Source: a virus
Lineage: Duplodnaviria > Caudoviricetes
Strand: one strand, 5' to 3'
Length of the DNA stretch: 55,101 nt
Virus record (IMG/VR): IMGVR_UViG_3300029448_000053
Span: 1 to 55,101 of that record
Shown here: one piece after another, positions 14,931-45,663 of the stretch
Position numbering within the stretch: position 1 is the stretch's first letter
Layout: every line of letters starts with the position of its first letter
Made by a program: the position numbers and the translations under genes
Notes under the pieces: model-generated
What the model was told of the DNA's origin: nothing
What the model saw: the letters and a program-made list of their open reading frames with translations, nothing else
Databases searched by the model: none

Positions 14931-15113
14931 TCACTCAAAAGAGGGTAGGTTTCCGTTCCGGTCTTGTTGTCGGTCAAGGTAGACCTGCAACACATCGTCA
15001 AAGAGAGAGGGGCGTTCCATCATGGACATATCCCTTACCCGTGTGTCTTCCAACAAGCAAATAATGTTCCTCAACCTGCGTATTTCATTCATCAGTTCTT
15101 CGTTTGTTTTCAT
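14931..15113 (-). CDS. Hypothetical small protein (MKTNEELMNE...)
   Basis: GGAGG SD; TTTATATAT box near 15200-15208 on the minus strand. Confidence 0.55.
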   Translation of the reverse strand: MKTNEELMNEIRRLRNIICLLEDTRVRDMSMMERPSLFDDVLQVYLDRQQDRNGNLPSFE

Positions 15114-15347
15114 GTTTTTTCCTCCATTGTTTTTACGGTTCGCCTGTTTTCTGTTCTTGTCCACTGACTTTCCCGTATGTGCATACTAACACCTATATCA
15201 TATATAAACGGTTCCCGAATAATGCTCATACCTATTGTTGAGTGGATGGGGGGTTGCCCCACGCACGGCCCCGCCGCCGGTATAAGACTGTTAATAGAAA
15301 ACGCGCTTGGGGAGAGATACTCGGCGTTTAGCCTCTGTAATATACTA

Positions 15348-15420
15348 TATAGTCTTAGGAAGGAACCGTGAACGGGAGGGGGCTTGGGAGAGAGATTTTG
15401 ACTTCTCCAAAAGTCCAAAC
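15348..15420 (+). repeat. Tripartite ~72-bp element, copy B
   Basis: TATAGTCTTA-N29-GGAGAGAGATTTT...AAAAGTCCAAAC. Confidence 0.7.
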
Positions 15421-15784
15421 TTTTCATGCTGTCGGCTCATGGTCTGTCGAATGTGTCCGAGGTTATGAACCCTTTGTTTTCTTGCTTTTTTGGCTGGAAT
15501 TGAACTTTTTTCTGTTTTTTTTTCTGTCTGTTTTTTTCTGTTTTTCTTTCGGTCTTGAATCGTTGCCCCTGATGTCCTAAACGGGGCACTGCGAGACCGG
15601 TGGCCCCTCCGCTCTCAAATGTGCCTTTTTTGGGCTGTTTTGGGCTTTGTCCGGCCAATGACAGGCCGACGATTTAGGGCACCCTAAATCTCTTTTTTTG
15701 TCTTCTATTCGATGGACTGCGAGCCTGTTTTTTGCAGAATGCCACTTGGATAAGTTGATATACTTGAGCGGGAATCGGTAATTG

Positions 15785-16925
15785 CTTCTCCAACCGGAGG
15801 GAGCCGAAGTGAATAATTTGCCCCACACTCATTCCCGATAGTTTAGGGATTCAATGAACGGGGAGTTTCGGAGGGTCATTAAAGTGGCCGTCGAAGAACC
15901 AAGAACAATACAGCGAACACATCATGTTCCCTTCAAAAACTGAAAACATCCAGAAAAAGGAGGGATTGCGTAGCCGTGCACTGCCTCTCTTGAGAGGTGG
16001 GGTAACGGACTCTTGAAGCCGGCTTTTGAGACACCCTCTCAAATATATTCAACGGCATGGGCGTGAGTCATAGGACAAACACGAACATTTGATAGACGGG
16101 TCGGGAACACCTTGACCCTCATGGGAGTTGCCTTCGACAGAAGAGGCACTGAAAGCATGAATTAGTGGATGGTTGAGAAGCATCACTTCTCGACAGGGGC
16201 GACCCGACTCCATCCAATAATCACCGCTTACAACTCTATGACAGTGGACTTAAAACCCCACTTGAGAGCATATATGACAAACAAGACCGCAATGAACTTA
16301 TGGGAACATATATCCGAAAGGAGGCTGTTTAAAGGTGTGCGCATCAGATTCGGGTGTTTCCCGACTGATGACACTATTTAGTAGCGAATTATTGAATTAC
16401 CGATGTAACCGGCGACGGGTGCATCAAACCATTAGATTTTGAGTCTCCACAGGCGGAGGTTCGCATATACCCACCGTGGTTATGCCTTACAGGAACTTTA
16501 TTTTTCAAGACGGCGTGGCTATGCGGTAGCAATACCGGCGGAGTGTCTATGATGCGAGGGAGGCGTGAACTTTTTTGAATAGGTGAGTCGGTCCGGTTGT
16601 ATAGCCGGCTCACTGAATTATCACGGCTCGGATTCATGCTCCAACATACACTACAATACACGGACATGATGAAAGGCAATCCTCCCGAATAATCTTCTAA
16701 TCCTGTGAAAAACGGCGCTTGAGGTGCTCCGCCAATGACGGCCCCAATCACAGTCCTCGCCCACATACGGGCAGAGCGTGGGATTATCTACGGCCTAAAC
16801 CGGACCACGCAGTATGAAAATGGAGCGGAGACTCTACCGCTACCGAACTCTCTCCCTCAAAGAAAGAGAGTGCTTGAAAGAGAGCAAAGAAAAGAGAGGC
16901 GCGACTTGTAGGCAAAGAGTCAAAA
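15785..16925 (+). ncRNA. Candidate large structured non-coding RNA (~1.1 kb), family unassigned
   Basis: No credible ORF; TTGATATA box at 15755-15762; many local hairpins with G-U pairs and GNRA loops plus nested long-range helices; ends approximate. Confidence 0.65.
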
Positions 16926-16944
16926 AAAACGGAGGAAAAAACAA

Positions 16945-19644
16945 ATGTATGAAAATGCAATGAACACAGATAGTGGTTTAGGCATGATTTTTGCTATGCT
17001 ATGGGTATTCCTACTCATGGGCGCAGTAATGACGGCCTTCATCACCCAACGATTAGAAGAAACAATGCGAATGCGTGTTGGACTCGAAATAGAAGTTCTA
17101 CGGAACGACCATACCGAGAATGCACCCAACCACTCAATTGCGACTTGGCTTGACATGAAAGCGGCCGCCGAAGGCGACGCCTACAATCAAGCGTATGAAA
17201 AGACACGAAAGAAGCGTGTCAGCATGTATCGAAAGACTCGTGCGAAGCGGCGAGAGGCAATACATAAAGCCCTGCCCCATTCATACTACAATAGACGTTT
17301 TAGAGTTCGTGATGAGTCGTGGTCTCAAGGCCGCACTGCACCACATACCAAAGTCATACCCGATGGTTCACTATCGAGTGGTGGCTTTGAAGTCGTGTCG
17401 CACCCTTTAACAGATGGTGCACATCATGGTTGGATTGCCACACTTGGTAGACTACTACGACACATAACTCGTATTGACCGCTCATGTGGGCTTCATGTCC
17501 ACATTGGCCTAAGAGACCCCGACGCTAATTTTGGCGACGGCGGTCAACTTACAATGACCGATGCAAAATCAATTGCTGGTCGAGTTGCTTGGGCCTATGC
17601 TTACTTCACCGATGCTTTCAACCAGATTGTATCACCGAGTAGACACTCCGGTCAATACTGCCAACGGTCCTACCATATGCTTCGGACTCACCCGAACCCA
17701 ACAAACCACACTACACGCCGACGAGACACTCATGTGATGGATAACCCATCACAGGAAGCCTACATACTTGATGGGACACATGAATACGAACAACTGTATG
17801 ACAATGACCCAAGTGAAGGATATGTAATCTACCGAGTTGAAAAACTTGAAGGGCAGACCTTGTGGCATAAAATGTATGACAACGCACGGAGTCATGGTCG
17901 TTATTACCATCTCAATGTGTGCAGTCTCCTTGACAGGCCCTTTGGCACTGTCGAGTTCCGTCAACATCAAGGAACATCAAACCCAGTGAAAATGAGTAAC
18001 TGGGTCGACTTATGCTATGAGTTTGTATTGCGGTGCGCCAGTGTCGAAAACTTTAATGGAATACAGGCATACTCACAGGACCTCAAAGGACTGTGGGCAT
18101 TCCTTGACTATGCGGAGGATGACCCAGTGGTTGACTATTATACCAAGCGTGCATATGTTCTAAATGGAGGCAACTTCATACGGGACTGCGACAATTGCGG
18201 TAGTAATACCTGTGTGCATTACGAGTGTGTAACAAAACTTGACAGCGACATTTCCGATGACGCCAAAAGATTCTTTGCCAACTCTCGTGATTGGTCTTGT
18301 TATGACTGCGGTAGTAGTAATTACCTTAGTGAGATTAACACTGAATATGAAACTGCTCACTGTGAATACTGCGACAATGAAGTGTCAATACACTGTTCCG
18401 GTGCAATTGCATCACTCGCCCTCGGCCTCTTTGTAGCCGCACCACTCGTGGGTGCAGTTGCACTGGTAGTCGGATGCGGTATAGGTGCAATCCATGTTGG
18501 TGCCAAGAAGTTCCAATCAAAGAAGAACTTCAAGCGTTTGTTCAATGACCTCGCAGTGCGTGGTGGACAAGCGTCTGGTTTTGCGTGGCAAAAGTCCAAA
18601 GGTGGCGAGACATCCGAACTGTGGTATATCAAATCGCCCACTCCCTCGACTCATCTCAAGAAGCGTGTCGATGACCTTGTAAAAGGCGACACTATTTGGA
18701 TAATGGGACATACTCGATTTGCCACACACGGTGAAAACAATTCCGACAATGCACACCCGCACTGGAGTCCAGACGGACACATAACACTTATTCACAACGG
18801 TGTTGTAGGTAATTATGACAAGGTGTGGAAAACCCTCGGCCTCAAACCGACGGGTCCAGTAGACAGCCAAGCAGTTGCCGCCGCTCTCGAAGTTGGTGGT
18901 ATCGAAAAGGTTGTTGAACTGTGCGTGGGCAATATGTCATTGATTTGGTCGGACAACCGAGACCCGAAAGGGACACTCAAGTTCTGGACAAACGGTGGCA
19001 ACCCACTATGTGCTGGTAGACTACATCATCCAAACAAAGGTCCACTCGTCATAGCATCGACATTACCAATCCTCAAGCAGTCTCAAAAGGGCTTGAAAAC
19101 ACACTGGTCGTGCACTATCGGAACTGAATACACAGTTCACCCCGATGGTTCAATCGAAAAGCGTGATATTGAAGGAAGTGAGGATAGTGTCGGTGTTGGC
19201 ATGTATAACTGGCGAACATATGCGAGCCTATACGGTGGTAAGTCAAAGTCCAACAAGACTCGGACTATTACAGTCAACGCACCAACGGGTAAAGCCGATG
19301 GTGTGGCTGATAATTGCACACTACCCGATGTATCGGACAGTTACGAATACGATGACATGGTGCTCAACGATGTTCTAAATGACGTGTGGGCACAGATGAG
19401 CATAGATGGTTGGATTCCAATTGACGAATACCACGGTTACGACACACAGACACATGTTGGCGTGCGGCCCGATGGAACATCCTACAAACTACCAAATTAC
19501 TACGGTGGTAAGGCTATGGACCCAGTTATGGACACAGACCAAATGGTAATGGTATTGCGTGGCGAGTTTGACCCACGCACTACGACCAAAGGATTCAATG
19601 AAGTAGAATCCTACTGGAATGACGTGCAGGAATACTACAACTAA
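16945..19644 (+). CDS. Fusion: TM + amidoligase (COOH-NH2 ligase) + Zn ribbons + TM + class II glutamine amidotransferase
   Basis: VGLEIEV, DGSL...GFEVVS, SCGLHVHIG, RYYHLN, TVEFRQHQGT (amidoligase); CGIG, RGGQASG, GHTRFATHG, NAHPH, HNGVVGNY, VDSQ (GATase II); GGAGG SD. Confidence 0.85.
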   Translation: MYENAMNTDSGLGMIFAMLWVFLLMGAVMTAFITQRLEETMRMRVGLEIEVLRNDHTENAPNHSIATWLDMKAAAEGDAYNQAYEKTRKKRVSMYRKTRAKRREAIHKALPHSYYNRRFRVRDESWSQGRTAPHTKVIPDGSLSSGGFEVVSHPLTDGAHHGWIATLGRLLRHITRIDRSCGLHVHIGLRDPDANFGDGGQLTMTDAKSIAGRVAWAYAYFTDAFNQIVSPSRHSGQYCQRSYHMLRTHPNPTNHTTRRRDTHVMDNPSQEAYILDGTHEYEQLYDNDPSEGYVIYRVEKLEGQTLWHKMYDNARSHGRYYHLNVCSLLDRPFGTVEFRQHQGTSNPVKMSNWVDLCYEFVLRCASVENFNGIQAYSQDLKGLWAFLDYAEDDPVVDYYTKRAYVLNGGNFIRDCDNCGSNTCVHYECVTKLDSDISDDAKRFFANSRDWSCYDCGSSNYLSEINTEYETAHCEYCDNEVSIHCSGAIASLALGLFVAAPLVGAVALVVGCGIGAIHVGAKKFQSKKNFKRLFNDLAVRGGQASGFAWQKSKGGETSELWYIKSPTPSTHLKKRVDDLVKGDTIWIMGHTRFATHGENNSDNAHPHWSPDGHITLIHNGVVGNYDKVWKTLGLKPTGPVDSQAVAAALEVGGIEKVVELCVGNMSLIWSDNRDPKGTLKFWTNGGNPLCAGRLHHPNKGPLVIASTLPILKQSQKGLKTHWSCTIGTEYTVHPDGSIEKRDIEGSEDSVGVGMYNWRTYASLYGGKSKSNKTRTITVNAPTGKADGVADNCTLPDVSDSYEYDDMVLNDVLNDVWAQMSIDGWIPIDEYHGYDTQTHVGVRPDGTSYKLPNYYGGKAMDPVMDTDQMVMVLRGEFDPRTTTKGFNEVESYWNDVQEYYN

Positions 19645-19659
19645 GCATTGTTTCTTTAA

Positions 19660-19833
19660 TCGACCGATGTCCTTAGTGTAATACACACTGAGGTTCCTTA
19701 ACCGATGGTTGAGGTTGCCGCCAATCTTGGGGCTTCGGCCCCTTGAGAGGCCCCCGCTGGCGAGCGGTTTACAAATACGCATTCACATTCCAGCCTTCGG
19801 GCATTCCTATTCCCTCACAGGGAGGTATAACAA
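19660..19833 (+). other. Repeated structured leader, unit 1
   Basis: TTAACCGATGGTTGAGG, GGGGC-TTCG-GCCCC hairpin, CGCTGGCGAGCG, TACAAATACGC, CACAGGGAGGTATAACAAATG. Confidence 0.55.
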
Positions 19834-19935
19834 ATGATGACTGCAAATGAAATTGAAGATGCAATAATCGCTGAACAAGTGGCTATTGATACTGCAAACA
19901 AAGAAGCATGGGCATTGGCTATTAGTCAATGCTAA
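19834..19935 (+). CDS. Mini-ORF, 33 aa (MMTANEIEDAIIAEQVAIDTANKEAWALAISQC)
   Basis: Strong GGAGGT SD; not in the track. Confidence 0.6.
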   Translation: MMTANEIEDAIIAEQVAIDTANKEAWALAISQC

Positions 19936-19954
19936 GTAATTGTAATACAATTAC

Positions 19955-20079
19955 TACTGTTAAACCGATGACTTGGCATACTCCAAGACGGCTGAGGAGC
20001 CACCCCAAATAGATGCGACCGTCGTGGGCGCTATACAAATACACGCATATTCCCCCACAGGAAAGGAGGTAAAACAAAC
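19955..20079 (+). other. Repeated structured leader, unit 2
   Basis: TTAAACCGATG...GACGGCTGAGGAGCCACCC...ATGCG...GCGCTATACAAATACACGC...CACAGGAAAGGAGGTAAAACAAAC. Confidence 0.55.
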
Positions 20080-20415
20080 ATGGATAAATACAAGCAACAA
20101 ATTATGCAACTGTATGCTACGCTACTGCGTGCACACATAGCATTACTTGATGAGATATTGGATGCGGCTACAAGTAAAGCCGCACGCCGATGTGCAACCA
20201 AAGCCAGTGAGCAAATCTGCTCAACTGTGTATCATTTGATACATGACACTGGTGTTATGCCCAACAGCCACATGATACCATATATCGACGACTTGGCCCC
20301 AACAGCCGACGACTTCGATTTCGGTCTCATGCACTCTGTTCGGGATATGGAGAAGCAAGTGTTCCCGTCGACAGTCGGCGGTCGCACTGGCTTCGGCCTA
20401 TACCCAAGCAACTGA
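20080..20415 (+). CDS. Hypothetical protein, 111 aa
   Basis: GGAGGT SD within the shared leader. Confidence 0.65.
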   Translation: MDKYKQQIMQLYATLLRAHIALLDEILDAATSKAARRCATKASEQICSTVYHLIHDTGVMPNSHMIPYIDDLAPTADDFDFGLMHSVRDMEKQVFPSTVGGRTGFGLYPSN

Positions 20416-20565
20416 TGTCTCATTAGTAATCCAGTATATCGGTAGGCCGTAGATAACTCGGCACTACTGTTCCCGAAAGGGTAGCCGCACTGCCCCTCGC
20501 TTCGGCGGGGGGTGGTGCCCAACACCTCCTCTCACATCACACTCCACACAGGAGGTATAACAAAA

Positions 20566-20676
20566 ATGGAAAATGAATGGGAATGCGGTTGCATTCAAAC
20601 AGGAACAAATTGGATTCTGTGCAAAGACTGTAAGGCGGCGCGTGAGCACCCTCTTGCATGTGCTTGTTGCCAGTAA
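20566..20676 (+). CDS. Cys-rich mini-ORF, 36 aa (MENEWECGCIQTGTNWILCKDCKAAREHPLACACCQ)
   Basis: CACAGGAGGTATAACAAAAATG leader; 7 Cys; not in the track. Confidence 0.6.
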   Translation: MENEWECGCIQTGTNWILCKDCKAAREHPLACACCQ

Positions 20677-20715
20677 GCATAATCCAAATGCCAAGCCAAA
20701 AATACCAAATGGATG

Positions 20716-20822
20716 ACGGGCATTTTAACCCGACGGTTGAGGAACCACCCACATAAATGCGCTGGCGAGCGCCATATAAATACGCTTCATTTTTTTTATC
20801 ACAGGTAGAGGATGACAAACAG
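20716..20822 (+). other. Repeated structured leader, unit 4 (no intact ORF follows)
   Basis: TTAACCCGACGGTTGAGGAACCACCC...ATGCGCTGGCGAGCGCCATATAAATACGC...CACAGG. Confidence 0.55.
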
Positions 20823-20892
20823 ATAGTCAGTAGACTATGCTCCCCGTCGTGGGGGATGGATGGGCATGACTGGAGATGCTCTCTCTCTCTCT

Positions 20893-20963
20893 TATAGTCT
20901 TAAGACTTAAGACTATACCACATGCGCTAAGGAGAGCGATTTTTGGCGGCGAAAAATCCAAAC
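20893..20963 (+). repeat. Tripartite ~72-bp element, copy C
   Basis: TATAGTCTTA-N28-GGAGAGCGATTTTT...AAAAATCCAAAC. Confidence 0.7.
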
Positions 20964-21023
20964 ATTCGCACACGCACACACACATGCGTCATACACTGCT
21001 AAAACCGAGGCTCTCTACGCACA

Positions 21024-21095
21024 TATAGTCTTAAGACTAATCCCCCCACCATACACGTATTAGGAGAGCGGTTTTTCACCTAAAAAAATCCAAAT
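21024..21095 (+). repeat. Tripartite ~72-bp element, copy D
   Basis: TATAGTCTTA-N29-GGAGAGCGGTTTTT...AAAAATCCAAAT. Confidence 0.7.
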
Positions 21096-21457
21096 CAAAA
21101 TGCTTATGAGGCACACACACATGCACATATGTGCGTATATACGGTGCCGAATCCCTACGAAAAAGCCCCTAAACAGGCGAAAAAGCGAACATATGTGCGG
21201 AATCAGGCGCAAAACACCGGCAAAACGCCGAAAAACGAGGCACTTGTATCTGTGTGGGTAGGCTCACACGCTACATGCGAGTATTTCGATTACGCCAAAA
21301 ACCAAACATGTTATAATGCGTATGTGCTGGAACTCTCTACTTTCGCACCCGTTCCGCATACACATCCATACATGACGCATATATCTACGCTTACGCATAG
21401 GGCCAGCAAACAGTGGAGCAGTGGTCTCTTTAAGTATCGAATGTAGGGGGAGAATCC

Positions 21458-21474
21458 TAATATACCGGCGGCCT
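21458..21474 (+). promoter_or_regulatory. TATA-type promoter opening the early gene run
   Basis: TAATATACCGGCGGCC ~30 nt before ATG 21489; related motifs at 23033, 25081, 26071, 27635 and 29092. Confidence 0.55.
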
Positions 21475-21488
21475 CACATTTCACTTTG

Positions 21489-21896
21489 ATGGCAACCGAA
21501 ACGGAAACCAACGAAGCGAGAGGCTCACTGAGTCTCGATAACCTACAAGACGGCACCTATTGGTTGGCCGACGGCATTTTACGCCGGTCTGGGGCGACCA
21601 AAGGATATTGGGTAGCCTCGCATAGAGGCACAGACGCCCTGCTTGACCGAGAATTAACGCTGTATCACCCCGCCGTAACTGGAGCGACTGTAAAGGCCAT
21701 GCTTGAAGCCCCTCGAATCCTTAACCAAAGCCGCACATTTTATGTGGGTGTTTGGACTGATAAATCCGGCAACCAACATCTCGACTACGCATACCATGTG
21801 GATAAGTATAACGAGGCTATGTCAATCGCAAAATACAGAAAGCAACTCGCATTTTGGGATATTGGCATGGGTCGTGAAGTGGTGGTGAACCAATGA
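21489..21896 (+). CDS. Hypothetical early protein
   Basis: 135 aa, apparently leaderless; YVGVW...HLD...QLAFWD segment. Confidence 0.7.
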   Translation: MATETETNEARGSLSLDNLQDGTYWLADGILRRSGATKGYWVASHRGTDALLDRELTLYHPAVTGATVKAMLEAPRILNQSRTFYVGVWTDKSGNQHLDYAYHVDKYNEAMSIAKYRKQLAFWDIGMGREVVVNQ

Positions 21897-22300
21897 GCGA
21901 ACCGGATTATACCTCCGAATTAGCCTATCTCGCAGATGGGTGTGCGCCTTTGCATAAGGCAGAGGTGGAATACATCAATGTTGACCGAAAATCCAAACAT
22001 TTCGGTGAGCGAAAGACCATGATGAGCACCTTCATGTGTCTACAACCGAGCGAGACATCCGAAGTCGCACCTGTATGTGGCGGTGCAATCTATCGTTTCG
22101 GTGGGGATGGAACATGGTGTGCCTCATGTGGCCCCATACAAATCTCCAAATCACGCCTCAATAAGCAGTCTTGGTCGGCAATCATTTCAGGTTGGGTTCA
22201 GCGAAAGGCCCATCATGGATGGCTGTGCAATTGGACTGAGACCGAACAAGCCGAAGCCGAAGCACAGTGGCAGTCGGACATGGATAGGTGTGAACTATGA
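21893..22300 (+). CDS. Hypothetical Cys-containing protein
   Basis: ATGA-coupled; WCASCG motif. Confidence 0.65.
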   Translation: MSEPDYTSELAYLADGCAPLHKAEVEYINVDRKSKHFGERKTMMSTFMCLQPSETSEVAPVCGGAIYRFGGDGTWCASCGPIQISKSRLNKQSWSAIISGWVQRKAHHGWLCNWTETEQAEAEAQWQSDMDRCEL

Positions 22301-30686: not shown

Positions 30687-31440
30687 TTTGAAGTCAATTC
30701 GGTATGAGCGAACATACCCCTACACCCGCAATAGGCAGGGGCGTATGATACAAGAGCCATACTTCACACTCAATGATGGAGGGGAAACCTTTCATTTACA
30801 TGGGCGATTAGTAATGTGGTCGTTTCTCGACTCACTATATCCCAAGCAACCTCTACCAAGAGGGCCTGTGGAGGATGATATATTCGCACCGGACATAACT
30901 ACCCCGTCAATGCTCGCATTGTTTCAAGACTTTGCTAATGAAGCGGTTAATTACAATCGCTATCTAATTCTTGAGCACGACAAGAAGAATACGGTTTCTT
31001 TAGTTCGGAACCTCGACCAGTATGCACTATCAAGTGAAATTGAAAAGGTGGGTCGGATGCTTGAGAACTCCGGTTTCGGGGTGGAGTATAGACCAAGCGT
31101 GTATATTGACTCTAAAGGCTCGCATCTAAGGGCCTCATTATTCTCACGTATAGGCACACACACGCTTAGAGTCATAGACATAGGCTCGTCTTACTACATG
31201 AGCATTAGTGCTCTCGATACATCCGGCAAAAAATACTGCGTTATGCCACCACTGACCTGTAAAAAGACAAGTCTAAGCATACAAAGCAAATTAAGAGACA
31301 TGATGGATGTCGCCTCGGTAGGAGTATCGAAGGAACAACTGTGGCAAATGGGTAAAACGCCCGAAGTAAATGAGTCGCCATATCTAATGACTCGTGAATT
31401 AGATACATTACTGCACGATAGATTGCGGAGGTGCATATAA
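30664..31440 (+). CDS. Hypothetical protein, ~256 aa
   Basis: Long ORF continuing the operon; start possibly 30670. Confidence 0.65.
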   Translation: MRMLSVIDLKSIRYERTYPYTRNRQGRMIQEPYFTLNDGGETFHLHGRLVMWSFLDSLYPKQPLPRGPVEDDIFAPDITTPSMLALFQDFANEAVNYNRYLILEHDKKNTVSLVRNLDQYALSSEIEKVGRMLENSGFGVEYRPSVYIDSKGSHLRASLFSRIGTHTLRVIDIGSSYYMSISALDTSGKKYCVMPPLTCKKTSLSIQSKLRDMMDVASVGVSKEQLWQMGKTPEVNESPYLMTRELDTLLHDRLRRCI

Positions 31441-31700
31441 GCGTTTTGGAATTAAGTTGTAATAATTTTTTTTGAGCAACTTAAAAGAACCAGCATACTG
31501 CACCTCTATTGCTCTAATTAAGTTATTACGTTAAAGACATTTATTTTAATATGGTCTATACTATACTATTACTATACTATACTATAACCTTTTTATTGAA
31601 TATCCTTTATACGAATTAACTTAATACATGCGAATCGGGGAGCAGTGTCTTGGTTTAATTTAGTTTATTGAATTGAAGTAACCAACTTAATTAGGGAACA
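31441..31700. other. Candidate replication origin
   Basis: Very AT-rich intergenic gap with CTATA tandem repeats, flanked by imperfect inverted repeats, directly upstream of the helicase operon. Confidence 0.55.
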
Positions 31701-31729
31701 CTTAAGTAGTGAAGAAGGATTGATGAAGA

Positions 31730-32566
31730 ATGATGATGAAGAAACATAACACCATAGACATATACCAACGAGAAGAGTGGCCGGATGCTCTACGAGGAGT
31801 GCTCATATACTCCGAGAATGAATACGGTTGCGCTTCGCACATAGCCATTAAATCACTATTGGGTGATACTGAACCTTCGGGTCGTATTCTCACCCACTTA
31901 ATCAATCAAATGGTTTTCAATCAAACAAAGGACTATGAGCAGGTAGGCTGGGCATATTACTTTTACGAAGACATACTGATTGTTAATATCAACAAGTGGC
32001 CCCAAACACCTATCATGCCCTTAGATGAAGCACAGGCAACATGGATTCACTGCTACCCACCTGTTCGAGACCTTCTCTCATTCCTCTACGAAAAGTATGG
32101 GTCTATGGGTTGGTTATCATATATGACATCAACAACTCTACATGACTCTTTGAATACAGATATTTTTAGAATACATGACCCAAAGGAAACGATTGCCTTT
32201 TGGCATTCCTCACAGAAAATGATACCTTTGCCAGCCACCGGAAAAAAAGTAAAGGGTGATTTGTTCTTTACCCCTCCCGCGTGGATGTTTCCTCACTTTG
32301 CGAATGCTATGGGCTTCACCAATTGCTTGACTCTTTTCAGTGGGCATGACCCCGAATCGGGAGACATTGACGAGGTAGCGGCTCTCACTCTTTTCCGATG
32401 GGCAAACCAAGTATCGGGTAATAAACAAACAAAGCACGCATTCAATCGTGCCCTCAAAAAGACGAAGGCTCAAGTGGCCGAAACACTAAGCCTAAGAAAA
32501 GACCTTGAAGCACTACTCGAAAGTGCCGAACAAAAAACAGAAGCACCGAATGTGCTATGGGGATGA
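31730..32566 (+). CDS. Hypothetical protein, possibly PAC2/proteasome-chaperone-like
   Basis: 278 aa; late IDEVAALTL helix, coiled-coil tail and C-terminal VLWG; weak resemblance only. Confidence 0.4.
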   Translation: MMMKKHNTIDIYQREEWPDALRGVLIYSENEYGCASHIAIKSLLGDTEPSGRILTHLINQMVFNQTKDYEQVGWAYYFYEDILIVNINKWPQTPIMPLDEAQATWIHCYPPVRDLLSFLYEKYGSMGWLSYMTSTTLHDSLNTDIFRIHDPKETIAFWHSSQKMIPLPATGKKVKGDLFFTPPAWMFPHFANAMGFTNCLTLFSGHDPESGDIDEVAALTLFRWANQVSGNKQTKHAFNRALKKTKAQVAETLSLRKDLEALLESAEQKTEAPNVLWG

Positions 32567-35388: not shown

Positions 35389-36057
35389 ATGGGCGTAGTA
35401 ATTTTTACCAAAGACGATGAGCGATACCGAACTGGGAATTACTTCGCTATGTATGGCGAACTCACAGTCTCCCCAAGCCTACCACACACTACTTACATTC
35501 TACACATTAACAAGTTCACTGAAAAGGATGCGCTCTATTGGGCAAAAATAGTTCCCTTTAGACTTGTTGTAGTCTCCGATAAAATGCCTAAATTAACAAA
35601 GGCGAGTGAAGAATGTGTCATCCTCGACCAATCAATCAAGACCAGTAAGCCGGACTTCTCTCGCAAAATGAGAGCCGCCTTATGCTGGGCCGACCGAGAC
35701 CGTGCACACACCGCTCTCGGACCTATCCCTCTCCCCTTAGCCAACGCATTCATCAAGGTTAATGTTCACGACATCAACCTCGGTCGCCTCTTGGCTCGAT
35801 GTCGCTATACCCTGCATGACAATTACACTCGTGCCGCTATTGCATACGGCATCAGTCCTATTCGCAATTTTAAATGGCCTTCTAAGAAGGCCAGTAATGA
35901 CTATATAGTGCCGAAAGGTATTAGACAAACAGACAAGCACATAAGCACTATCATAAATAATGATGTGATAGTAGCCAATGAGTTGCGTATCAATGATACC
36001 GCCGCTCTACCTGCTCGTCTAAACAAAACAAAACAGGATGTAATACAATGGGTATGA
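35389..36057 (+). CDS. Hypothetical protein, 222 aa
   Basis: Long ORF in the operon. Confidence 0.65.
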   Translation: MGVVIFTKDDERYRTGNYFAMYGELTVSPSLPHTTYILHINKFTEKDALYWAKIVPFRLVVVSDKMPKLTKASEECVILDQSIKTSKPDFSRKMRAALCWADRDRAHTALGPIPLPLANAFIKVNVHDINLGRLLARCRYTLHDNYTRAAIAYGISPIRNFKWPSKKASNDYIVPKGIRQTDKHISTIINNDVIVANELRINDTAALPARLNKTKQDVIQWV

Positions 36058-36422
36058 TGATGAAACAAAAAGCAATAGATACGGTGTTTGTTTATGGAAC
36101 ACTAAAACAAGGATATACGAACCACTATTTTCTTGAAGACTCCCTTTACTTGGGGGAGTTCAAGACTAATCCTAAGTGGGGCTTATTAGATTTAGGTTTA
36201 TTCCCTGCTATGGTTGTAGGGTCCTTAGAAGTAGAAGGTGAGGCGTATGGTGTCAGTGAGGAAACTCTCGACCGACTCGACCGACTCGAAGGCGTAGAAC
36301 AAGGACTCTACCGACGAAAAAGAATCAGTGTCAACGACAGTCTCGGCAACAGTATCAGTGCTTGGGCATACATTTACAATGCCATTCCTCATAACGAAAC
36401 AACATTATTAGCGGAGTGGTGA
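36048..36422 (+). CDS. Gamma-glutamylcyclotransferase (GGCT/AIG2-like)
   Basis: VFVYGTLKQG, FPAM, VEGEAY, LDRLEG...LYRR, AWAYIY. Confidence 0.9.
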   Translation: MGMMMKQKAIDTVFVYGTLKQGYTNHYFLEDSLYLGEFKTNPKWGLLDLGLFPAMVVGSLEVEGEAYGVSEETLDRLDRLEGVEQGLYRRKRISVNDSLGNSISAWAYIYNAIPHNETTLLAEW

Positions 36423-38038: not shown

Positions 38039-39229
38039 ATGGTAGATATACAACAGATGATTGAAAGAATAAGCAAAAATGTGAACTGCACACTCGACGC
38101 ACTTAGTGCTCGAATGGACTCCGTGCTCGACGAGAATCGAGCGGCATGGATGGATGCAGGGAAAACAGAAGAAGAGTGCAATATCAATGCACTAAGAATT
38201 GCAGGGCGACAAGTGAAAAGCGAAGGAGAGCGACTAAAGCGTTCCGGCGCAACTCTCTTTGAAGGAATGTTCCTTAGTGCACCACGATACAAAGACTGGG
38301 CCGAGTTCGCATACAAGAAAGCGGCTAAGAGTATTGGCGACTCCGCTATTGCGGATGCTATGGTAGAAGACGGATTGGCAACAGTCTATGAAGACAACAA
38401 TGACGGCACATATACCAAAAAATACAACGGGTCTTTGGCTCGTGGCGAAGCATTCGACCCCGATGTTACTACAACTGACATCTCGGAACTCCCAAAGAAT
38501 ACATATGATGCCGGCAACGGATTACACTTTCACTTGATTTGGGACAAGGCCAGCCCTACATTCCCTTCGGGCGATAAGAACTTCAAGTATGGCAACCCTC
38601 GCCCATTGAGTGAGAAGGACCGTAACTGTATGTTCTTGGGTCGCAAACAAGGTGAGAAGGATATTCAAATCTACTCGATGCGCTTTACTGGTGCGTTGGC
38701 CGAAGTAGACCACCCAACATTTGTAGCAGGAACTATCGCTATGCGACCTGCTCGCAACGGTAACACTGCCTATGCAAAGGCAGGTGTCTCCGCTTTCACA
38801 GTGGATGACTCACTACAAACAATTTTCTCCGACGCACCCGATGCCATGAACTATGATGGTGTCAAGCGACTCGAAGGTGGACTACAAGACATCGAATCCT
38901 TTGTTGGTGGACTCACCGATAAAGAGAAGTGGGATGCTCTCGTTTCTGTTGTTGTTGAAGTGGTTCACATTGACCCACGAGACAACGGTGGCTACATTAT
39001 GACTGTTGGCGACCTTGATATTATGAGTATGGCTGGCACTACGGACATTTATGTCCCTGCCTCCCAAGAATCTCTTGTTGACTTCTCGGTCGGCTCGACT
39101 CTCATGGTGATAGGTCAACCATACATGAGCCGTGATGATGAAGCACGTCTTGTAACTACTGGTTGGTATTGCGCCGAATCTCTTGGTTCCTCCGAAACCT
39201 CCACTACTGATGTTGAGGGGTGGGACTGA
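38039..39229 (+). CDS. Putative RPA-like ssDNA-binding protein (OB folds, acidic tail)
   Basis: Beta-rich C-terminal OB-like domain (VDFSVGSTLMVIGQPY), acidic end DVEGWD, replication context. Confidence 0.55.
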   Translation: MVDIQQMIERISKNVNCTLDALSARMDSVLDENRAAWMDAGKTEEECNINALRIAGRQVKSEGERLKRSGATLFEGMFLSAPRYKDWAEFAYKKAAKSIGDSAIADAMVEDGLATVYEDNNDGTYTKKYNGSLARGEAFDPDVTTTDISELPKNTYDAGNGLHFHLIWDKASPTFPSGDKNFKYGNPRPLSEKDRNCMFLGRKQGEKDIQIYSMRFTGALAEVDHPTFVAGTIAMRPARNGNTAYAKAGVSAFTVDDSLQTIFSDAPDAMNYDGVKRLEGGLQDIESFVGGLTDKEKWDALVSVVVEVVHIDPRDNGGYIMTVGDLDIMSMAGTTDIYVPASQESLVDFSVGSTLMVIGQPYMSRDDEARLVTTGWYCAESLGSSETSTTDVEGWD

Positions 39230-40158
39230 TGGCTTGGGCACAGTCTAAGACCGAGGCGGCACCTGCGAAAGCGGGTGCTACCTACGGGGCCGATTACTAC
39301 CGTGAGTTGTTTGAACAAAAGCGTGATACTCATGCTCCTATTCGCATGGCACTTGTTGGCAAAGAGAACACAGCAAAGACTGGTCTATCTCTTGACCTCG
39401 CACTCAAGCACACGGACAAGCAAATTATTGTCCTCGATTGCGACAACTCCGCACAGAATACAGTTGATTACCTACTCTCTACCAAAGTTGAGGGTGCTGA
39501 GAATATCCGTGTCATCCCTATGATTGATGAGATGGATGACGCTATGTGGAATGATGACAACACTACCGATTGGCTCGCAGTAGTCAAGAAGTTGGAATGG
39601 TTCACTGCCTACTTAGGTGAGAATCACTCCGAGATTGGTGCAGTAGTTATGGATGGCGGCTCTACATTCCTTAAGTGGTGTGAGTTTGTTATGACTGAAC
39701 GCCTACTTGAGCGTGGTGTCATCAAAGACGAGAGTGATAACTTCAATCAGAAAGAATGGCGTGAGCGCAACCGTGTGTTCAAGAGCGTTCTCAACAGGTT
39801 GACTGCTCTCCCTATCCCTTACATTTTCTTTACCTTTCACTTGAAAGACAAGAAGCAATTTATGGACATCGGCAACGGCACTAAAGCCATGATGAAAATT
39901 GGCGAGATTGTTGATTGGGTTGACGGCACACAGCGTTTCGTGAGCCAACAGATTTTACTACGTCGATACACCAAGAAAGGCGACAAGACCGCAGGTGTTG
40001 AGGCTGACAAAAAATTGGGTGAGGATGACTTTGTTATCCGTGCTACGGTTAATGAGATGAAAGGCCGCAACATGGAACACTTGGGCAAACAATATGACTT
40101 GATGAGTGTTGTCAATAGCAAAGTGGCTTGGAATGGACTACCTTTCGGGTGGGACTAA
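39229..40158 (+). CDS. RecA-superfamily P-loop ATPase (Sak4/AAA_24-like)
   Basis: ALVGKENTAKT Walker A, VLDCD, AVVMDG Walker B, IFFTFH. Confidence 0.7.
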   Translation: MAWAQSKTEAAPAKAGATYGADYYRELFEQKRDTHAPIRMALVGKENTAKTGLSLDLALKHTDKQIIVLDCDNSAQNTVDYLLSTKVEGAENIRVIPMIDEMDDAMWNDDNTTDWLAVVKKLEWFTAYLGENHSEIGAVVMDGGSTFLKWCEFVMTERLLERGVIKDESDNFNQKEWRERNRVFKSVLNRLTALPIPYIFFTFHLKDKKQFMDIGNGTKAMMKIGEIVDWVDGTQRFVSQQILLRRYTKKGDKTAGVEADKKLGEDDFVIRATVNEMKGRNMEHLGKQYDLMSVVNSKVAWNGLPFGWD

Positions 40159-41887: not shown

Positions 41888-44110
41888 ATGATAGTAACAC
41901 AGGTTGGCGGTAGAGATATACGCATACGGAGTAGAGACCCCGAAACACTTGAGCGTCAAGACCTAAAGGTCATGGCATACCCCTATTGTTTTTCAAACAA
42001 TGTAGGTGATACCTACGGACTGGTTAAAATCCAAGAAGGATTCGAGGGACTATACGGTCAAAAGTTAAACAAGGTGTATTTTCGCACCGAGTATGACCGA
42101 CGCTTATGGGCTAAAGGAAAAGAGACATGGGAGGCGAATGTAACATTCCCCAACCAAGTGTTGATTGACCGACTCGAAAAGGGCGAAGACCCCATCCCGA
42201 ACTACCAGCACCGTATTTGGTATCTCGATGGTGAATGGAAAACCACCTCCGGTGAAATAACCATGTTGTCGGTGCAGGACTCCTACACAGGTAGACTTTA
42301 TTCTTGGGTTCATCACCCCGACATAAAGGCCGGCGTCTACAAATCTCTCGAAGAATATGATTATGATACTCCAATTAAGGCGTTTGCTAATGAACGTCAA
42401 TTGCTCGCTGATTTTGCCGCACATATGGCAAAACAAGACCCCGATATTATAGCCGGTTGGTATGTGGTTGACGCCGACATTAAACAAATATGCGACCGTA
42501 TGAGAGCAGTGGGATTAGACCCAAAGAGTCTATCCCCATACAACCGACATGACTTCAAATACAACTGGAGCGATAAGCATTGGTCCCAACCGATTGCAGG
42601 TAGGTTATGTTTTGATTTGATGATTGGATTTAAAACATTATGGACTCTAAAGAACGGACAATTAGCGAGTCAAAAATTAGATGATATTGCTTGGCATGTG
42701 CTACAAGAGCGCAAAGTAGAGTTGCCCGACGGACACGACACATACTACTCCGACCCCGTAAAGTATCTCGATTACAACCGACAGGATGTGAGGCTACTAC
42801 CTCGGCTTGATGAAGCAGTGAATGCAACAGGCTACTATACTTCTATGCAACATGTGGTTCAATGTCAACTCGGCATTACTCCTCTCATCACCGCTATGAG
42901 CACGAGCCTATTCCTCCAAGACAATGAGTTTGACTTACGCATTCCCGACTCACCTCAATTTGAGAAGAAGGAGTATGCAGGGGCCGACATTCAAGAACCG
43001 GAGCCGGACCGTTATGAGAACATGGCTATCATGGATATTAAGGCCATGTATCACAGTAATGTAAAATTACATCGGATATGCTGGACCAACCTTAGTGAAG
43101 ACGGGGTGGATTGCGGCAACGGTATCAAGTTCACTCAAAGAGAAGGCTTACTGGGCCGCACTATGGATAAATTAACAATCAAACGTAATGAATACAAGGC
43201 TTTGATGAAGGAGGCTCGTGCCACTGGTGATGAAATCGCCTACAAGAAGTGGGATGGAGCGCAATTTGCTACGAAGTCTATGGTCGCATCCCTCTATGGG
43301 ATATGTGGCGATTCTAAATACGGCATGTATCACCCCGATATAGCCGCCGCTATCACATTCACCTCTCGCCAAACGCTGTTCCGATTACGGGATGAATGCA
43401 ACGAGCGAGGTTATCCTGTTCGATACGGACACACTGATTCAATTTTCTGTGAAGTGCCCTCTCCCGAAGAAGGCATGAAGTTGGTAATTGAAATCAACAA
43501 GTCTATGGCACCTATCGAGACCGAGTTCGAGAAGTGGTGTGAGTCTATGGTTCTCAAGGCTAAGAATCGCTATGCCGGTAAAGTTACATGGACTGATGGC
43601 GAATACCATGAGCCGGACTACTACTACAAGGGACTTGAACTAATACAGGCTCGAATGCCAAAGGCTATGAAATCCGCTATGGACTCCACTCTCCGTGCTA
43701 TTCTTGACGGAAAATCACGGGATGAAGTGGATGAGGACTTGAGTCAATTGATAAGCAAAGGTTTGGCCGGAGAACTTGGTGAGGACTTGTTGATGGTTGG
43801 TAAATTAAAGAAGCGATTGAGTGAATACAAGGTCTTGTCCGGCGCATCGGCAGGTGCATATTGGGCTAAGAAAACCCTCAATAAGAATTACAAAGTCAAT
43901 GAATCATTTTTGACTGCTGTGGATATTAAGGGCCAACATATAGCCTTTGATGACATACAGGATTTGGTGGGGACTACCGAGATTGATTGGTCGGAGATGA
44001 CCGAGAAGTTCATTGTCAATAAGGCATCGAGTATCTATGACCTTGTAGGATGGTCCACTATTGAATTAAACAACGCTCATCGAGGATTGGGTGCTGTTCA
44101 GTGGGTATAA
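41888..44110 (+). CDS. polB: Family B DNA polymerase
   Basis: Exonuclease YLDGE, KLDDIA, YNRQD; polymerase DIKAMYHS, KSMVASLYG, YGHTDS, KNRYAG. Confidence 0.93.
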   Translation: MIVTQVGGRDIRIRSRDPETLERQDLKVMAYPYCFSNNVGDTYGLVKIQEGFEGLYGQKLNKVYFRTEYDRRLWAKGKETWEANVTFPNQVLIDRLEKGEDPIPNYQHRIWYLDGEWKTTSGEITMLSVQDSYTGRLYSWVHHPDIKAGVYKSLEEYDYDTPIKAFANERQLLADFAAHMAKQDPDIIAGWYVVDADIKQICDRMRAVGLDPKSLSPYNRHDFKYNWSDKHWSQPIAGRLCFDLMIGFKTLWTLKNGQLASQKLDDIAWHVLQERKVELPDGHDTYYSDPVKYLDYNRQDVRLLPRLDEAVNATGYYTSMQHVVQCQLGITPLITAMSTSLFLQDNEFDLRIPDSPQFEKKEYAGADIQEPEPDRYENMAIMDIKAMYHSNVKLHRICWTNLSEDGVDCGNGIKFTQREGLLGRTMDKLTIKRNEYKALMKEARATGDEIAYKKWDGAQFATKSMVASLYGICGDSKYGMYHPDIAAAITFTSRQTLFRLRDECNERGYPVRYGHTDSIFCEVPSPEEGMKLVIEINKSMAPIETEFEKWCESMVLKAKNRYAGKVTWTDGEYHEPDYYYKGLELIQARMPKAMKSAMDSTLRAILDGKSRDEVDEDLSQLISKGLAGELGEDLLMVGKLKKRLSEYKVLSGASAGAYWAKKTLNKNYKVNESFLTAVDIKGQHIAFDDIQDLVGTTEIDWSEMTEKFIVNKASSIYDLVGWSTIELNNAHRGLGAVQWV

Positions 44111-44452: not shown

Positions 44453-44713
44453 ATGGCACGAGTATTGTTAACAAGTATGGATGAAGAATTGGTCGCTAAG
44501 GCTATTGAACTTCACGGTAAAAGAGATGTATATGTCGCAGTAGATGCAACAGTCCTCTCTCGCATGAAGGCACTTGAACTCGGACTTGACACTCACGCAT
44601 TGGTCGGCGTTGACGCCGATGCTTCGACTTACGAAGCATTCCCTGCCCCTACAAAGAAGGCTACAAAGCCTAAGAAAGTAGAGGCGAAGAAGGATGCACC
44701 AAAGTCCGAGTAA
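44453..44713 (+). CDS. Hypothetical protein with Lys-rich tail
   Basis: MARVLL... start (track gives 44420); KKATKPKK tail. Confidence 0.55.
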   Translation: MARVLLTSMDEELVAKAIELHGKRDVYVAVDATVLSRMKALELGLDTHALVGVDADASTYEAFPAPTKKATKPKKVEAKKDAPKSE

Positions 44714-45659
44714 ATACAGCAAAGAGTGGTTTGAAATCCACGGCCCCGAACACGGGCACGCTAATCCATTCAAAGCGGCTAATAATAACTGGCCGGTTCG
44801 ACTATCTAAGTCGGCATTTATGACCTACTTAGGTTGCCCTCGTAAGTATTGGTGGGGTAATGTAGCCGAGATACGAGGTCCACGTAATCATTTCATGGTT
44901 CATGGGACTGCGGTTCATCGTGCTCTGGAAAATCTCTATGGTAATTGGGATGCTACTACTGAAAAGACATTCCCTACTTTGATGATGAAGGACTGGGAGG
45001 ATAAATCCACCCACGAACCGCATTTGGAGTGGGATGAGATGCAAAAACAAATCTATACTGGTTCTGTTGAGGCTCTCGCTCAACTTGAAGAGGAGAGGTT
45101 GCGTCGCTGGGGGACTGAATCATTTGCTCCCGAAGAGTTCGAGGTCAAGCACACTATCAAGGCACCGGACAATAATTTTATTCTCGTAGGTATGATTGAC
45201 GGAGTGCATAGGCACCCCGACGGTGGCCTTGTTATCACTGAATTGAAGACAGGTAAAGCAACCTCCGGCAAATTGAGTAAGACCCGTAAGGAACTATGCT
45301 ACTACCGCTACATGCTGGCCCTGTTGGGTTGGGATGAAGCAGTCTACTTCTACTACCTATTCCCCGAAGCAACCAACACTAAGTTGTTTCACGAACTTGA
45401 CGGCAAAAAGAACACCGAGGTGTGGCTTGGCGACCTTCAAGGCATGGCTGTTTTAGAGAAGGTGCAAAAGCGTTCTGTAACGGCTATGCACAGGTCTCTC
45501 GACAAGACTTTCGAGGGCATTAGCAACTCAATATGGGACATAAAATGGAACGATTACTTCTGTTCGGAGTGGTGTGAGTTCAATATGTCCTGTGAGTCTC
45601 AATTGATGGGTATTGATGAAGACCCAACGGTCTTATATAGTGCCGATGAGGAATGGTGA
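44694..45659 (+). CDS. Cas4-like PD-(D/E)xK exonuclease
   Basis: LSKS...CPRKYW, GTAVHRALE, GMIDGV, ITELKTG, C-terminal CSEWCEFNMSC (4-Cys Fe-S pattern). Confidence 0.85.
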   Translation: MHQSPSKYSKEWFEIHGPEHGHANPFKAANNNWPVRLSKSAFMTYLGCPRKYWWGNVAEIRGPRNHFMVHGTAVHRALENLYGNWDATTEKTFPTLMMKDWEDKSTHEPHLEWDEMQKQIYTGSVEALAQLEEERLRRWGTESFAPEEFEVKHTIKAPDNNFILVGMIDGVHRHPDGGLVITELKTGKATSGKLSKTRKELCYYRYMLALLGWDEAVYFYYLFPEATNTKLFHELDGKKNTEVWLGDLQGMAVLEKVQKRSVTAMHRSLDKTFEGISNSIWDIKWNDYFCSEWCEFNMSCESQLMGIDEDPTVLYSADEEW

Positions 45660-45663
45660 TAAC

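Follow-up and report, generated by a model that had tools for sequence, protein, structure and literature searches.

A repeated intergenic cassette with a TATA-like box and covarying hairpins, a candidate promoter in the small-gene block of an uncultured tailed virus

Introduction

Promoter modules that are repeated between genes and carry hairpins or a TATA-like box are already known from archaeal viruses and from T4-type phages. Here we describe a repeated intergenic unit from the uncultured marine virus IMGVR_UViG_3300029448_000053 (Duplodnaviria; Caudoviricetes), a linear record of 55,101 bp with an estimated completeness of 85% that was analysed at its full length (the window), and compare it with these systems. 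Three copies, named unit 1, unit 2 and unit 4, lie on the + strand in one block of tiny genes, and we read them, with a little more confidence than doubt, as copies of a virus-specific intergenic promoter cassette made of a TATA box, an initiator and attached hairpins. The transcription signals of uncultured marine viruses, especially of putative archaeal ones, are almost unknown. The cassettes together with a second motif of this virus, TATATAGTGGCG, would supply two candidate promoter classes for one such lineage and would mark its fast-changing accessory-gene block, and they offer a concrete case for asking whether gene shuffling driven by repeated promoter modules extends beyond T4-type phages and haloviruses.

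The intergenic repeats of HF2, in which virus-specific motifs flank a TATA box and an initiator, fall into class I with 58 bp and class II with 29 bp and are proven promoters; according to the parts of the source used here their place is conserved among relatives, the two classes serve different genome regions, and activity as well as start sites were shown experimentally (PMC8707807). The units resemble these repeats, as far as they are described there, in being short repeated intergenic sequences with an A/T-rich TATA box and virus-specific flanks, and the virus studied here likewise has two distinct classes in different regions whose position and orientation are conserved among relatives. 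In contrast, the sequences are not similar, and the parts of the source used do not describe the HF2 repeats as built on covarying hairpins, although one repeat holds a 9-bp inverted repeat. The units, known here from sequence alone, carry three attached hairpins with compensated stems and are confined to one tiny-gene block.

In HGTV-1 a conserved TATA-box-like region with an inverted repeat precedes most open reading frames (ORFs) of one genome arm, and the excerpt used here likens this arrangement to the promoter-early stem-loops (PeSLs) and to genome shuffling (PMC3950731). In the HGTV-1 record itself many of 41 upstream regions show CGAAA and then TTAAGT-type boxes about 30 nt before the ATG. 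The primary source for this motif is reportedly Sencilo et al. 2013. On this partial description the units share with HGTV-1 a TATA-like box and a short inverted repeat directly ahead of many small ORFs, and the distance of about 30 nt between box and ATG recurs at the TATATAGTGGCG genes of our virus. The units differ from it in that a GC-rich hairpin arm takes the place of the haloarchaeal CGAAA transcription factor B recognition element (BRE), and in that they stand in leaders with Shine–Dalgarno (SD) sequences at 2–4 copies per genome, whereas HGTV-1 has mostly leaderless genes and dozens of copies. The units match the repeats of HF2 and HGTV-1 in kind and differ from them in sequence, in the three covarying hairpins, in the GC-rich arm and in their confinement; the known examples leave the covarying hairpins with constant loops unexplained.

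The PeSLs of T4-like myoviruses join a bacterial early promoter to a terminator-like stem-loop, as stated in the passages used (PMC4122927; PMC2839356). Similar to the units, they are described there as modules of stem-loop and promoter that recur in a plastic region among small, variable ORFs and as exchange points, with close relatives differing by indels of gene plus module (PMC4122927). The units, however, come from an unrelated virus with a probably archaeal host, and although stem-loops are present there is no sigma-70-like site at their cores and no U-tract after the stems. Finally, the promoters of the N4 virion RNA polymerase are hairpins with a stem of 5–7 bp and a 3-nt loop that need the giant virion RNA polymerase. 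They resemble the units in being few short hairpins with conserved flanks, in one orientation and ahead of early genes, but no gene for such a giant enzyme turned up here in a PF00940 search whose control also gave none.

Results and Discussion

The small-gene block directly follows the gene of an 899-aa fused amidoligase and class-II glutamine amidotransferase (16945–19644, +) and consists of three tiny genes and four short spacers (19645–19833, 19936–20079, 20416–20566 and 20677 onward). In the window the order is amidoligase, unit 1, 33-aa ORF, unit 2, 111-aa ORF, spacer 3, 36-aa ORF and unit 4. Units 1, 2 and 4 share a core in which a 5-bp hairpin (hairpin 2) with the constant loop GGCG abuts TAYAAATA(C)CGC, followed by a G-free spacer and then by CACAGG or a leader hairpin. 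An earlier note on this DNA, made from its letters alone, had pointed to a repeated intergenic motif. This is borne out by conservation in all nine searched loci of relatives that contain the block, by shuffle controls and by a repeat finder, which returned a 26-nt family at 19755–19780, 20019–20044 and 20760–20785 with identities of 100, 69 and 85%. TAYAAATAC occurs four times in 55 kb against 1.05 expected (four are reached in 3 of 100 shuffles), three of these matches being located on the + strand within 1.1 kb, and CCGAYGGYTGAGG, present in exact copies at 19702 and 20730, gives 12 matches at up to two mismatches against 2.96 expected, a count reached by none of 100 shuffles. AYAAATACGC alone at up to one mismatch is not significant in the window (11 against 6.5 expected). 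All strings quoted in the earlier note are present in the units as quoted; of the two exact copies of CGCTGGCGAGCG, the one at 20760 was placed correctly, while the other starts at 19755 and not at 19756.

Unit 1 (19698–19833, +) precedes the 33-aa ORF (19834–19935, +) and is truncated at its 5' end; the 5' arm of the first hairpin, H0, is missing. It comprises an H1-like TTAACCGATGGTTGAGG, an inserted hairpin GGGGC-UUCG-GCCCC (19729–19742), hairpin 2 (CCGCT 19754–19758, loop GGCG 19759–19762, AGCGG 19763–19767), the TATA-like TTTACAAATACGC (19768–19780), a leader hairpin GCC-UUCG-GGC (19793–19802), CACAGG (19816–19821) and the SD sequence GGGAGG (19820–19825). The long form is found in unit 2 (19963–20079, +) ahead of the 111-aa ORF (20080–20415, +), with H0 (CTTGG 19972–19976, CCAAG 19983–19987), H1 (GGCT 19990–19993, loop GAGG, AGCC 19998–20001), a variant hairpin 2 with a 5-nt loop and one A.G mismatch (GCGACC 20015–20020, GGGCGC 20026–20031), TATACAAATACACGC (20032–20046), CACAGG (20056–20061) and the SD sequence AGGAGG (20064–20069). 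Unit 4 (20708–20822, +), also of the long form, has no gene after it and faces a non-coding repeat region of about 650 nt. Its parts are H0 (CGGG 20717–20720, CCCG 20729–20732), H1 (GGTT 20735–20738, loop GAGG, AACC 20743–20746), hairpin 2 (GCGCT 20759–20763, loop GGCG 20764–20767, AGCGC 20768–20772), CATATAAATACGC (20773–20785), a T8 run (20790–20797) and CACAGG (20800–20805). The T8 run begins 17 nt past hairpin 2 and is the only long sense-strand T-run of the block. The note had all units ending in CACAGG before the SD region, which holds for units 1, 2 and 4; as spacer 3, which has no core, ends in CACAGG too, this hexamer is not specific to the motif.

Relatives were collected with two proteins as queries. 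The 111-aa protein, the conserved gene product of the block, retrieved four viral contigs at 94, 90, 76 and 59% identity and 14 metagenome contigs, several of them duplicates, while with PolB a 61-kb contig (79% identity), filed in a metagenome-assembled genome (MAG) under the label Opitutales, and one of 2.8 kb from a Rhodobiaceae MAG came up. The 61-kb contig (61,226 bp; G005:C3, identical to L048) has in common with our virus, besides PolB, the amidoligase gene, the TATATAGTGGCG motifs and a region around TAGTCTTAAGAC, is similar in length to the relative G001, and looks from these features like the near-complete genome of a relative; therefore the Opitutales bin label may not name the host.

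Covariance models were built for the core (R2) and for the long unit (R1), R1 being trained only on sequences of the unit-2 and unit-4 type, and were run against 232,972 bases comprising the window, the whole 61.6-kb contig G001, the whole of G005:C3 and nine other loci. R1 finds unit 1, which is outside its training set, at 19700–19782 (E = 0.004), as well as unit 2 at 19963–20046 (E = 2.6e-20, within the training set), and R2 matches unit 1 at 19751–19786 (E ~1e-8) and unit 2 at 20015–20050 (E = 2.6e-5). Strong matches of either model are confined to this block and to the + strand, with three in the window, two in G001 and at least one in each of the nine relatives' loci that contain the block. 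Every strong core match in the window and in G001 immediately precedes either a small gene or the non-coding region, a position and orientation that would suit a promoter. Outside the block the 232,972 bases hold nothing but one place in G005:C3 with E = 3.9, seen in two overlapping loci. The repeated sequence with its TATA-like box and its own flanking motifs was found at the same place and on the same strand in 9 of the 9 relatives' loci searched. In a scan of the viral collection GGYTGAGGARCCACCC occurred in 22 stretches, of which the unit was present in two contigs (the two closest known relatives) and the other 20 were unrelated contexts; for GGCGWGCGSYWTAYAAATAC there were seven, two from relatives and five unrelated.

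We collected 17 distinct versions of the core and counted the spacing between the parts from index 1, set two bases before the A of AYAAATAC. All 17 have the A/T box, and in 15 of them either CAYAGG/TCAGCG or the leader hairpin begins at index 24–29. Among the eight units without leader hairpin, CAYAGG or TCAGCG begins at index 24–28 in seven and at index 34 in one. In the eight with leader hairpin, GCC-UUCG-GGC begins at index 25 and GCUAC-GAAA-GUAGC at 28–29, and in the single remaining unit a second unit comes next. The stretch from CGC to CACAGG or to the leader hairpin is 13–19 nt long and contains no G at all. Archaeal TATA boxes are described in the section used as A/T-rich 8-bp elements about 27 nt before the start, which has a pyrimidine at -1 and a purine at +1 (PMC5316973). 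Going by the sequence, the position expected for an archaeal start site is taken up by an initiator-like CA or by the base of a tetraloop hairpin that would be 5'-terminal. The fallback of the earlier note, that TAYAAATA could instead be a TATA box, has thus turned into the better-supported reading, as archaeal-type features and the regularity of 24–29 nt in 15 of the 17 units suggest. Avoidance of T-runs on the sense strand was also considered as a sign of archaeal termination; the asymmetry is about as large as predicted from the skew of A over T and therefore decides nothing.

The attached hairpins are conserved in their pairing. An alignment of 14 of the 17 core versions shows a 5-bp stem with the constant GGCG loop and N3-AYAAATACGC directly after it. 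The stems of hairpin 2 are GCGCT/AGCGC, GCGCA/TGCGC, CCGCT/AGCGG, CCGGT/ACCGG and CCAGT/ACTGG, and both sides change in four of the five pairs; 91.4% of the cells are paired against 70.6% in shuffles, none of 500 shuffles reaches the score, and slid registers all drop to 29–57%. Unpaired cells are confined to two rows of the unit-2 type, which form a hairpin of their own; in it a G-C pair of one of the two, the window and L036, is replaced by A-U in the other. In an RNAalifold consensus of eight long units three separate hairpins appear, H0, H1 and hairpin 2, in which 6 of 13 pairs are compensated and none is broken, all 13 being Watson-Crick without a single G.U. H1 is the compensatory pair GGCT/AGCC versus GGTT/AACC that the earlier note had singled out, with C-G in four and U-A in four of the eight distinct units and no broken pair. 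As the hairpins keep their pairing through compensatory changes, there is a constraint on single-stranded structure. Whole-unit folding of the three units is hardly beyond that of shuffles (z = -1.86, -1.28 and -0.83), and each unit consists of small hairpins that are independent of one another, a modular arrangement and not one fold. The spacing between its parts varies, an H1-like hairpin is present also in spacers without core, and in units of the L005/L006 type other hairpins lie upstream, namely GTGTG-AGAMC-CACAC and one whose stem carries a CMGUGCU loop. Among relatives hairpins are exchanged, truncated or absent while the core of hairpin 2 and TATA-like box stays, in line with the note's remark that hairpin insertions differ between units and the core is kept.

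The same structures could be taken as RNA-level elements. The block would then be transcribed as one polycistronic RNA, with the units as intercistronic signals, be it endonuclease processing sites, 3'-end stabilisers or sites at which a viral RNA-binding protein recognises the GGCG and GAGG loops, and TAYAAAUACGC would be the single-stranded portion of the signal and no promoter. Covarying stems with constant loops and linkers, a variable spacing from part to part and RNA-typical C(UUCG)G and GAAA tetraloop hairpins inserted in and beside the units agree with this. Spacer 3 (20416–20566, +) also speaks for it: not a member of the family, matched by neither R1 nor R2 and sharing with the units only its CACAGGAGG end, it forms a strongly structured leader of its own, in which GAAA and UUCG tetraloops cap hairpins, the long stem has three G.U pairs and CCUCCUC pairs with GGAGGU over the SD sequence. 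It folds with z = -4.74 on the + strand and -1.55 on the - strand, clearly as + strand RNA, and so these spacers would be under RNA-level selection; the predicted CCUCCUC/GGAGGU helix would hide the SD sequence of the 36-aa gene and may be a translational control element. Against an RNA-level role of the units stands the lack of G.U among the 13 pairs in eight sequences, so that nothing ties H0, H1 and hairpin 2 to + strand RNA. Whole-unit folding is weak (z from -0.8 to -1.9), no gene follows unit 4, and the A/T box with its regular distance to CACAGG or the leader hairpin is left without a role. Moreover, the last spacer of L005/L006-type relatives has only the A/T box, a T-run and TCAGCGAGAGG, its hairpins being gone. 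Taken together, we consider this reading rather unlikely.

The earlier note had proposed an undescribed cis-acting RNA such as a riboswitch or a self-cleaving ribozyme. The hairpins of that proposal are real and compensated, and conserved unpaired stretches between covarying hairpins would suit such an RNA. Yet Rfam gave no match at gathering score in the whole window and none at E up to 1 in 15000–22000, neither a multi-helix junction nor long-range pairing is seen in the consensus, relatives exchange the modules, which also occur on their own, folding is weak (z = -0.83 to -1.86), and the units stand ahead of unrelated tiny ORFs and once ahead of a non-coding region. A riboswitch or ribozyme is therefore hardly to be expected here. 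Other candidates were judged by eye and dropped: a C/D-box or k-turn RNA (GAUGA and CUGA are spaced by 20 nt, and the bulge does not fit), a CRISPR-repeat mimic (stems differ among copies of one genome), a bulge-helix-bulge, a T-arm mimic and a sigma-54 site.

The domain of the host was approached through replication and packaging genes and through TATATAGTGGCG. The clamp loader is of the RFC type, its best solved relatives being archaeal RFC small subunits (1.7e-31), followed by T4 gp44 (2e-11) and bacterial gamma (5e-8), while a protein-atlas search with it returned viral clusters only and no host clue. A PolB search gave 704 records, all below 60% identity (23–24% for those listed), headed by three haloarchaeal tailed viruses and then T4-like cyanophages, and a TerL search gave 23 records, among which the haloarchaeal phiH and PhiCh1 stand beside phages of Firmicutes and Arthrobacter; for both proteins the cultured matches have 21–26% identity. 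Against an expectation of 0.17, TATATAGTGGCG has four exact copies and two with one mismatch (30243, 35902, 37060, 37999, 44113 and 45634), which without exception are on the + strand and within 30–46 kb. The related ATATACCGGCG occurs twice (21460 and 25083, +). For the genes at 21489, 37089 and 44142 and for a 50-aa ORF near 45663 the ATG lies 28–30 nt past the first T of TATA without an SD sequence, and a manual count gave the same for the terminase gene. The 29-nt spacing of the clamp-loader gene is kept in the window, G001 and G005 despite different spacer sequences, and that of the 44142 gene in the window and G005. Such a fixed distance without SD fits archaeal leaderless genes and not bacterial promoters, and TATATAGTGGCG has the look of an archaeal-type leaderless promoter class that serves replication genes. 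On this sequence evidence the host is probably archaeal.

Several observations weigh against the promoter cassette with an archaeal host. An A-rich or purine-rich BRE was not found before the box in the units; the 5–8 nt at this place are the GC-rich 3' arm of hairpin 2, for example AGCGCC, TGCGC or AGCGG. Some boxes contain C (TACAAATA, AACAAATA), those of one clade are degraded (TATCAACA), and the initiator spacing is not strict, because TCAGCG begins at index 34 in one unit and 33–36 nt from the box in L005/L006-type spacers (manual count). CACAGG also terminates the core-less spacer 3. A plain promoter leaves the covarying stems with their constant loops (GGCG, GAGG) unexplained, and the UUCG hairpin inserted upstream of the box of unit 1 argues that this part works as RNA. 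Concerning the host, two relatives' contigs are in MAGs labelled as bacteria (Opitutales, Rhodobiaceae), and most genes here have strong SD sequences, which do not discriminate between the domains.

From the last two points a cassette for a bacterial host could be derived, in which TAYAAATA is a -10-like or T4-late-like element used by a bacterial RNA polymerase with a phage factor, and the terminator-like stem-loops make the units true PeSL analogues. Besides the bacterial bins and the strong AGGAGG sequences, TATAAATA in unit 4, which we take to be the T4 late promoter consensus, was counted in its favour. PeSLs also share the layout and the gene-shuffling role, as far as the passages used describe them (PMC4122927; PMC2839356). 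Nevertheless, a scan for sigma-70-like sites gave 11, where 11.6 were expected; no site coincides with a box, the closest one being a 9-of-12 match at 19923–19951, and AACAAATA and TATCAACA are poor -10 hexamers. Terminator-like sites in the window are at chance level with none on the + strand in the units, and no U-tract directly follows the hairpins. No sigma or gp55-like protein turned up among the ORFs scanned, and the 28–30 nt between TATA and ATG without SD suit archaeal leaderless genes. A bacterial-host cassette is in our view unlikely.

A further possibility is a structure-dependent DNA signal, with hairpin 2 extruded from supercoiled or single-stranded DNA as in the promoters of the N4 virion RNA polymerase or in single-strand initiation sites. 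All pairs are Watson-Crick and therefore both strands can fold, the 5-bp stem with its constant loop lies immediately ahead of the predicted start region, and the copies are few, in one orientation and in an early-looking block. On the other hand, PF00940 (T7/N4-like RNA polymerase) had no match in the window and four relatives, which is weak evidence as the control also gave none. D.D.D is the metal-site motif of crAss-type virion RNA polymerases. The 2245-aa ORF has neither a family match nor D.D.D, a search that is no test for an enzyme of the T7/N4 type, and by eye it is fibre-like, with an abundance of S, T, G and N. The loop has 4 nt here against 3 nt in N4, and stems of 4–5 bp extrude poorly. 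We regard such a signal as very improbable. A broader proposal, in which the hairpin at the TATA-like box takes part in promoter recognition, be it as extruded DNA or by recruiting a viral factor in nascent or read-through RNA, is speculative and improbable as well. If true, a structure-dependent promoter class would mark one gene block, as an archaeal counterpart of N4-type hairpin promoters, and the end of the upstream transcript might be coupled to the next start.

Comparison of the block between relatives shows that units of the same types enclose different ORFs. The 33-aa ORF between units 1 and 2 is missing or replaced by another small ORF in relatives, and the slot of the 36-aa Cys-rich ORF (20567–20676, +) between spacer 3 and unit 4 holds other ORFs of 51–79 aa. 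In L003/G001 the 33-aa gene is absent and a single unit is left, whose 5' part is like unit 1 and whose 3' end is that of unit 2. L036 has other small ORFs following unit 1 and following spacer 3. The order in L004 is a 66-aa ORF, a unit, an ORF resembling ribbon-helix-helix (RHH) proteins and a unit; L037 lacks the RHH-like ORF and has a chimeric unit, with the left half of L004a and a right half of the L003b type that switch within AAATACGCTTCA. Also in L037, two units stand in tandem with no gene between them, and in other relatives these slots are filled by ORFs of 51, 57 or 79 aa. Where close relatives differ by the loss, gain or replacement of a small ORF, the difference ends in the repeated unit, as for the 33-aa ORF with unit 2 that is absent from L003 and for the L037 chimera. 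This is, by analogy, the pattern of mosaicism described for PeSL-mediated shuffling in the portion of the source used (PMC4122927). Several of the exchangeable small ORFs between cassettes of relatives (L004 862–1021, L043 1760–1915 and L036 1996–2196) look from their sequence like RHH DNA-binding proteins.

For the promoter cassette we suggest the following model. The TATA-like (T)AYAAATA with its conserved CGC, the 5-bp GGCG-loop hairpin directly before it and the G-free spacer of 13–19 nt after it would form the core, and transcription would start at CACAGG just ahead of the SD sequence or at the foot of a 5'-terminal UUCG or GAAA hairpin. As the virus looks archaeal, the box would be read by the basal machinery of the host, probably archaeal TBP, TFB and RNA polymerase. 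H0, H1 and hairpin 2 would be accessory modules that most likely act in the read-through RNA of the preceding gene, as 3'-end or intercistronic stabilisers or insulators, or alternatively as a landing site for a viral regulator. They may well belong to read-through RNA, given the RNA-typical C(UUCG)G hairpins in their midst and the T8 run at 20790 downstream of hairpin 2 of the last unit, where it would terminate the transcripts of the block. They may instead act on DNA, all pairs being Watson-Crick and the loops constant. Since the same cassette is repeated, it would double as a crossover point at which relatives gain, lose and swap the small genes in between.

Unit 4 points into a non-coding region (20822–21480, about 650 nt) with repeats, in which paired modules of TATAGTCTTAAGACT palindromes, AGGAGAGCGATTTTT..AAAAATCCAAA and GCACACACACATGC are found. 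The palindrome has a 12-nt core, TAGTCTTAAGAC, with five matches at up to one mismatch against 0.2 expected, and a similar module is present at 15340–15420 (region 15290–15420). The region is kept in all relatives including G005 and may represent an origin of replication or a source of non-coding RNA. Another non-coding stretch of about 1.5 kb is located at 15430–16940, and in an AT-rich spacer at 31440–31730 (GC 0.39) there is a T8 run at 31466, with TATAC/TACTA repeated in tandem at about 31550–31590.

The window shows no DNA similarity to cultured phages, no tRNA was found in it, and the 899-aa protein as query gave no pattern match among viral contigs. A gamma-glutamyl cyclotransferase-like protein is encoded at 36048–36422 (+). 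A gene set of amidoligase, glutamine amidotransferase and gamma-glutamyl cyclotransferase-like protein has likewise been reported for a predicted Poseidoniales virus, in the part of that source used (PMC11706807). Satyavativiridae/Vyasavirus was considered as the lineage, amidoligase, glutamine amidotransferase and phosphoesterase genes being common to both according to the same part (PMC11706807), but it is not the same virus, having an 87-kb genome that is said possibly to rely on the host replisome (PMC13108676). The 2245-aa ORF mentioned above (48034–54771, -) has no Pfam or PHROG match and, judged by its composition, is probably a giant tail or fibre protein. In the replication region PolB and a 222-aa protein end in QWV and four other proteins in EW, GWD, GWD and EEW (41888–44110, 35389–36057, 36048–36422, 38039–39229, 39220–40158 and 44694–45659, all +), ends whose sequence recalls C-terminal clamp-docking tails.

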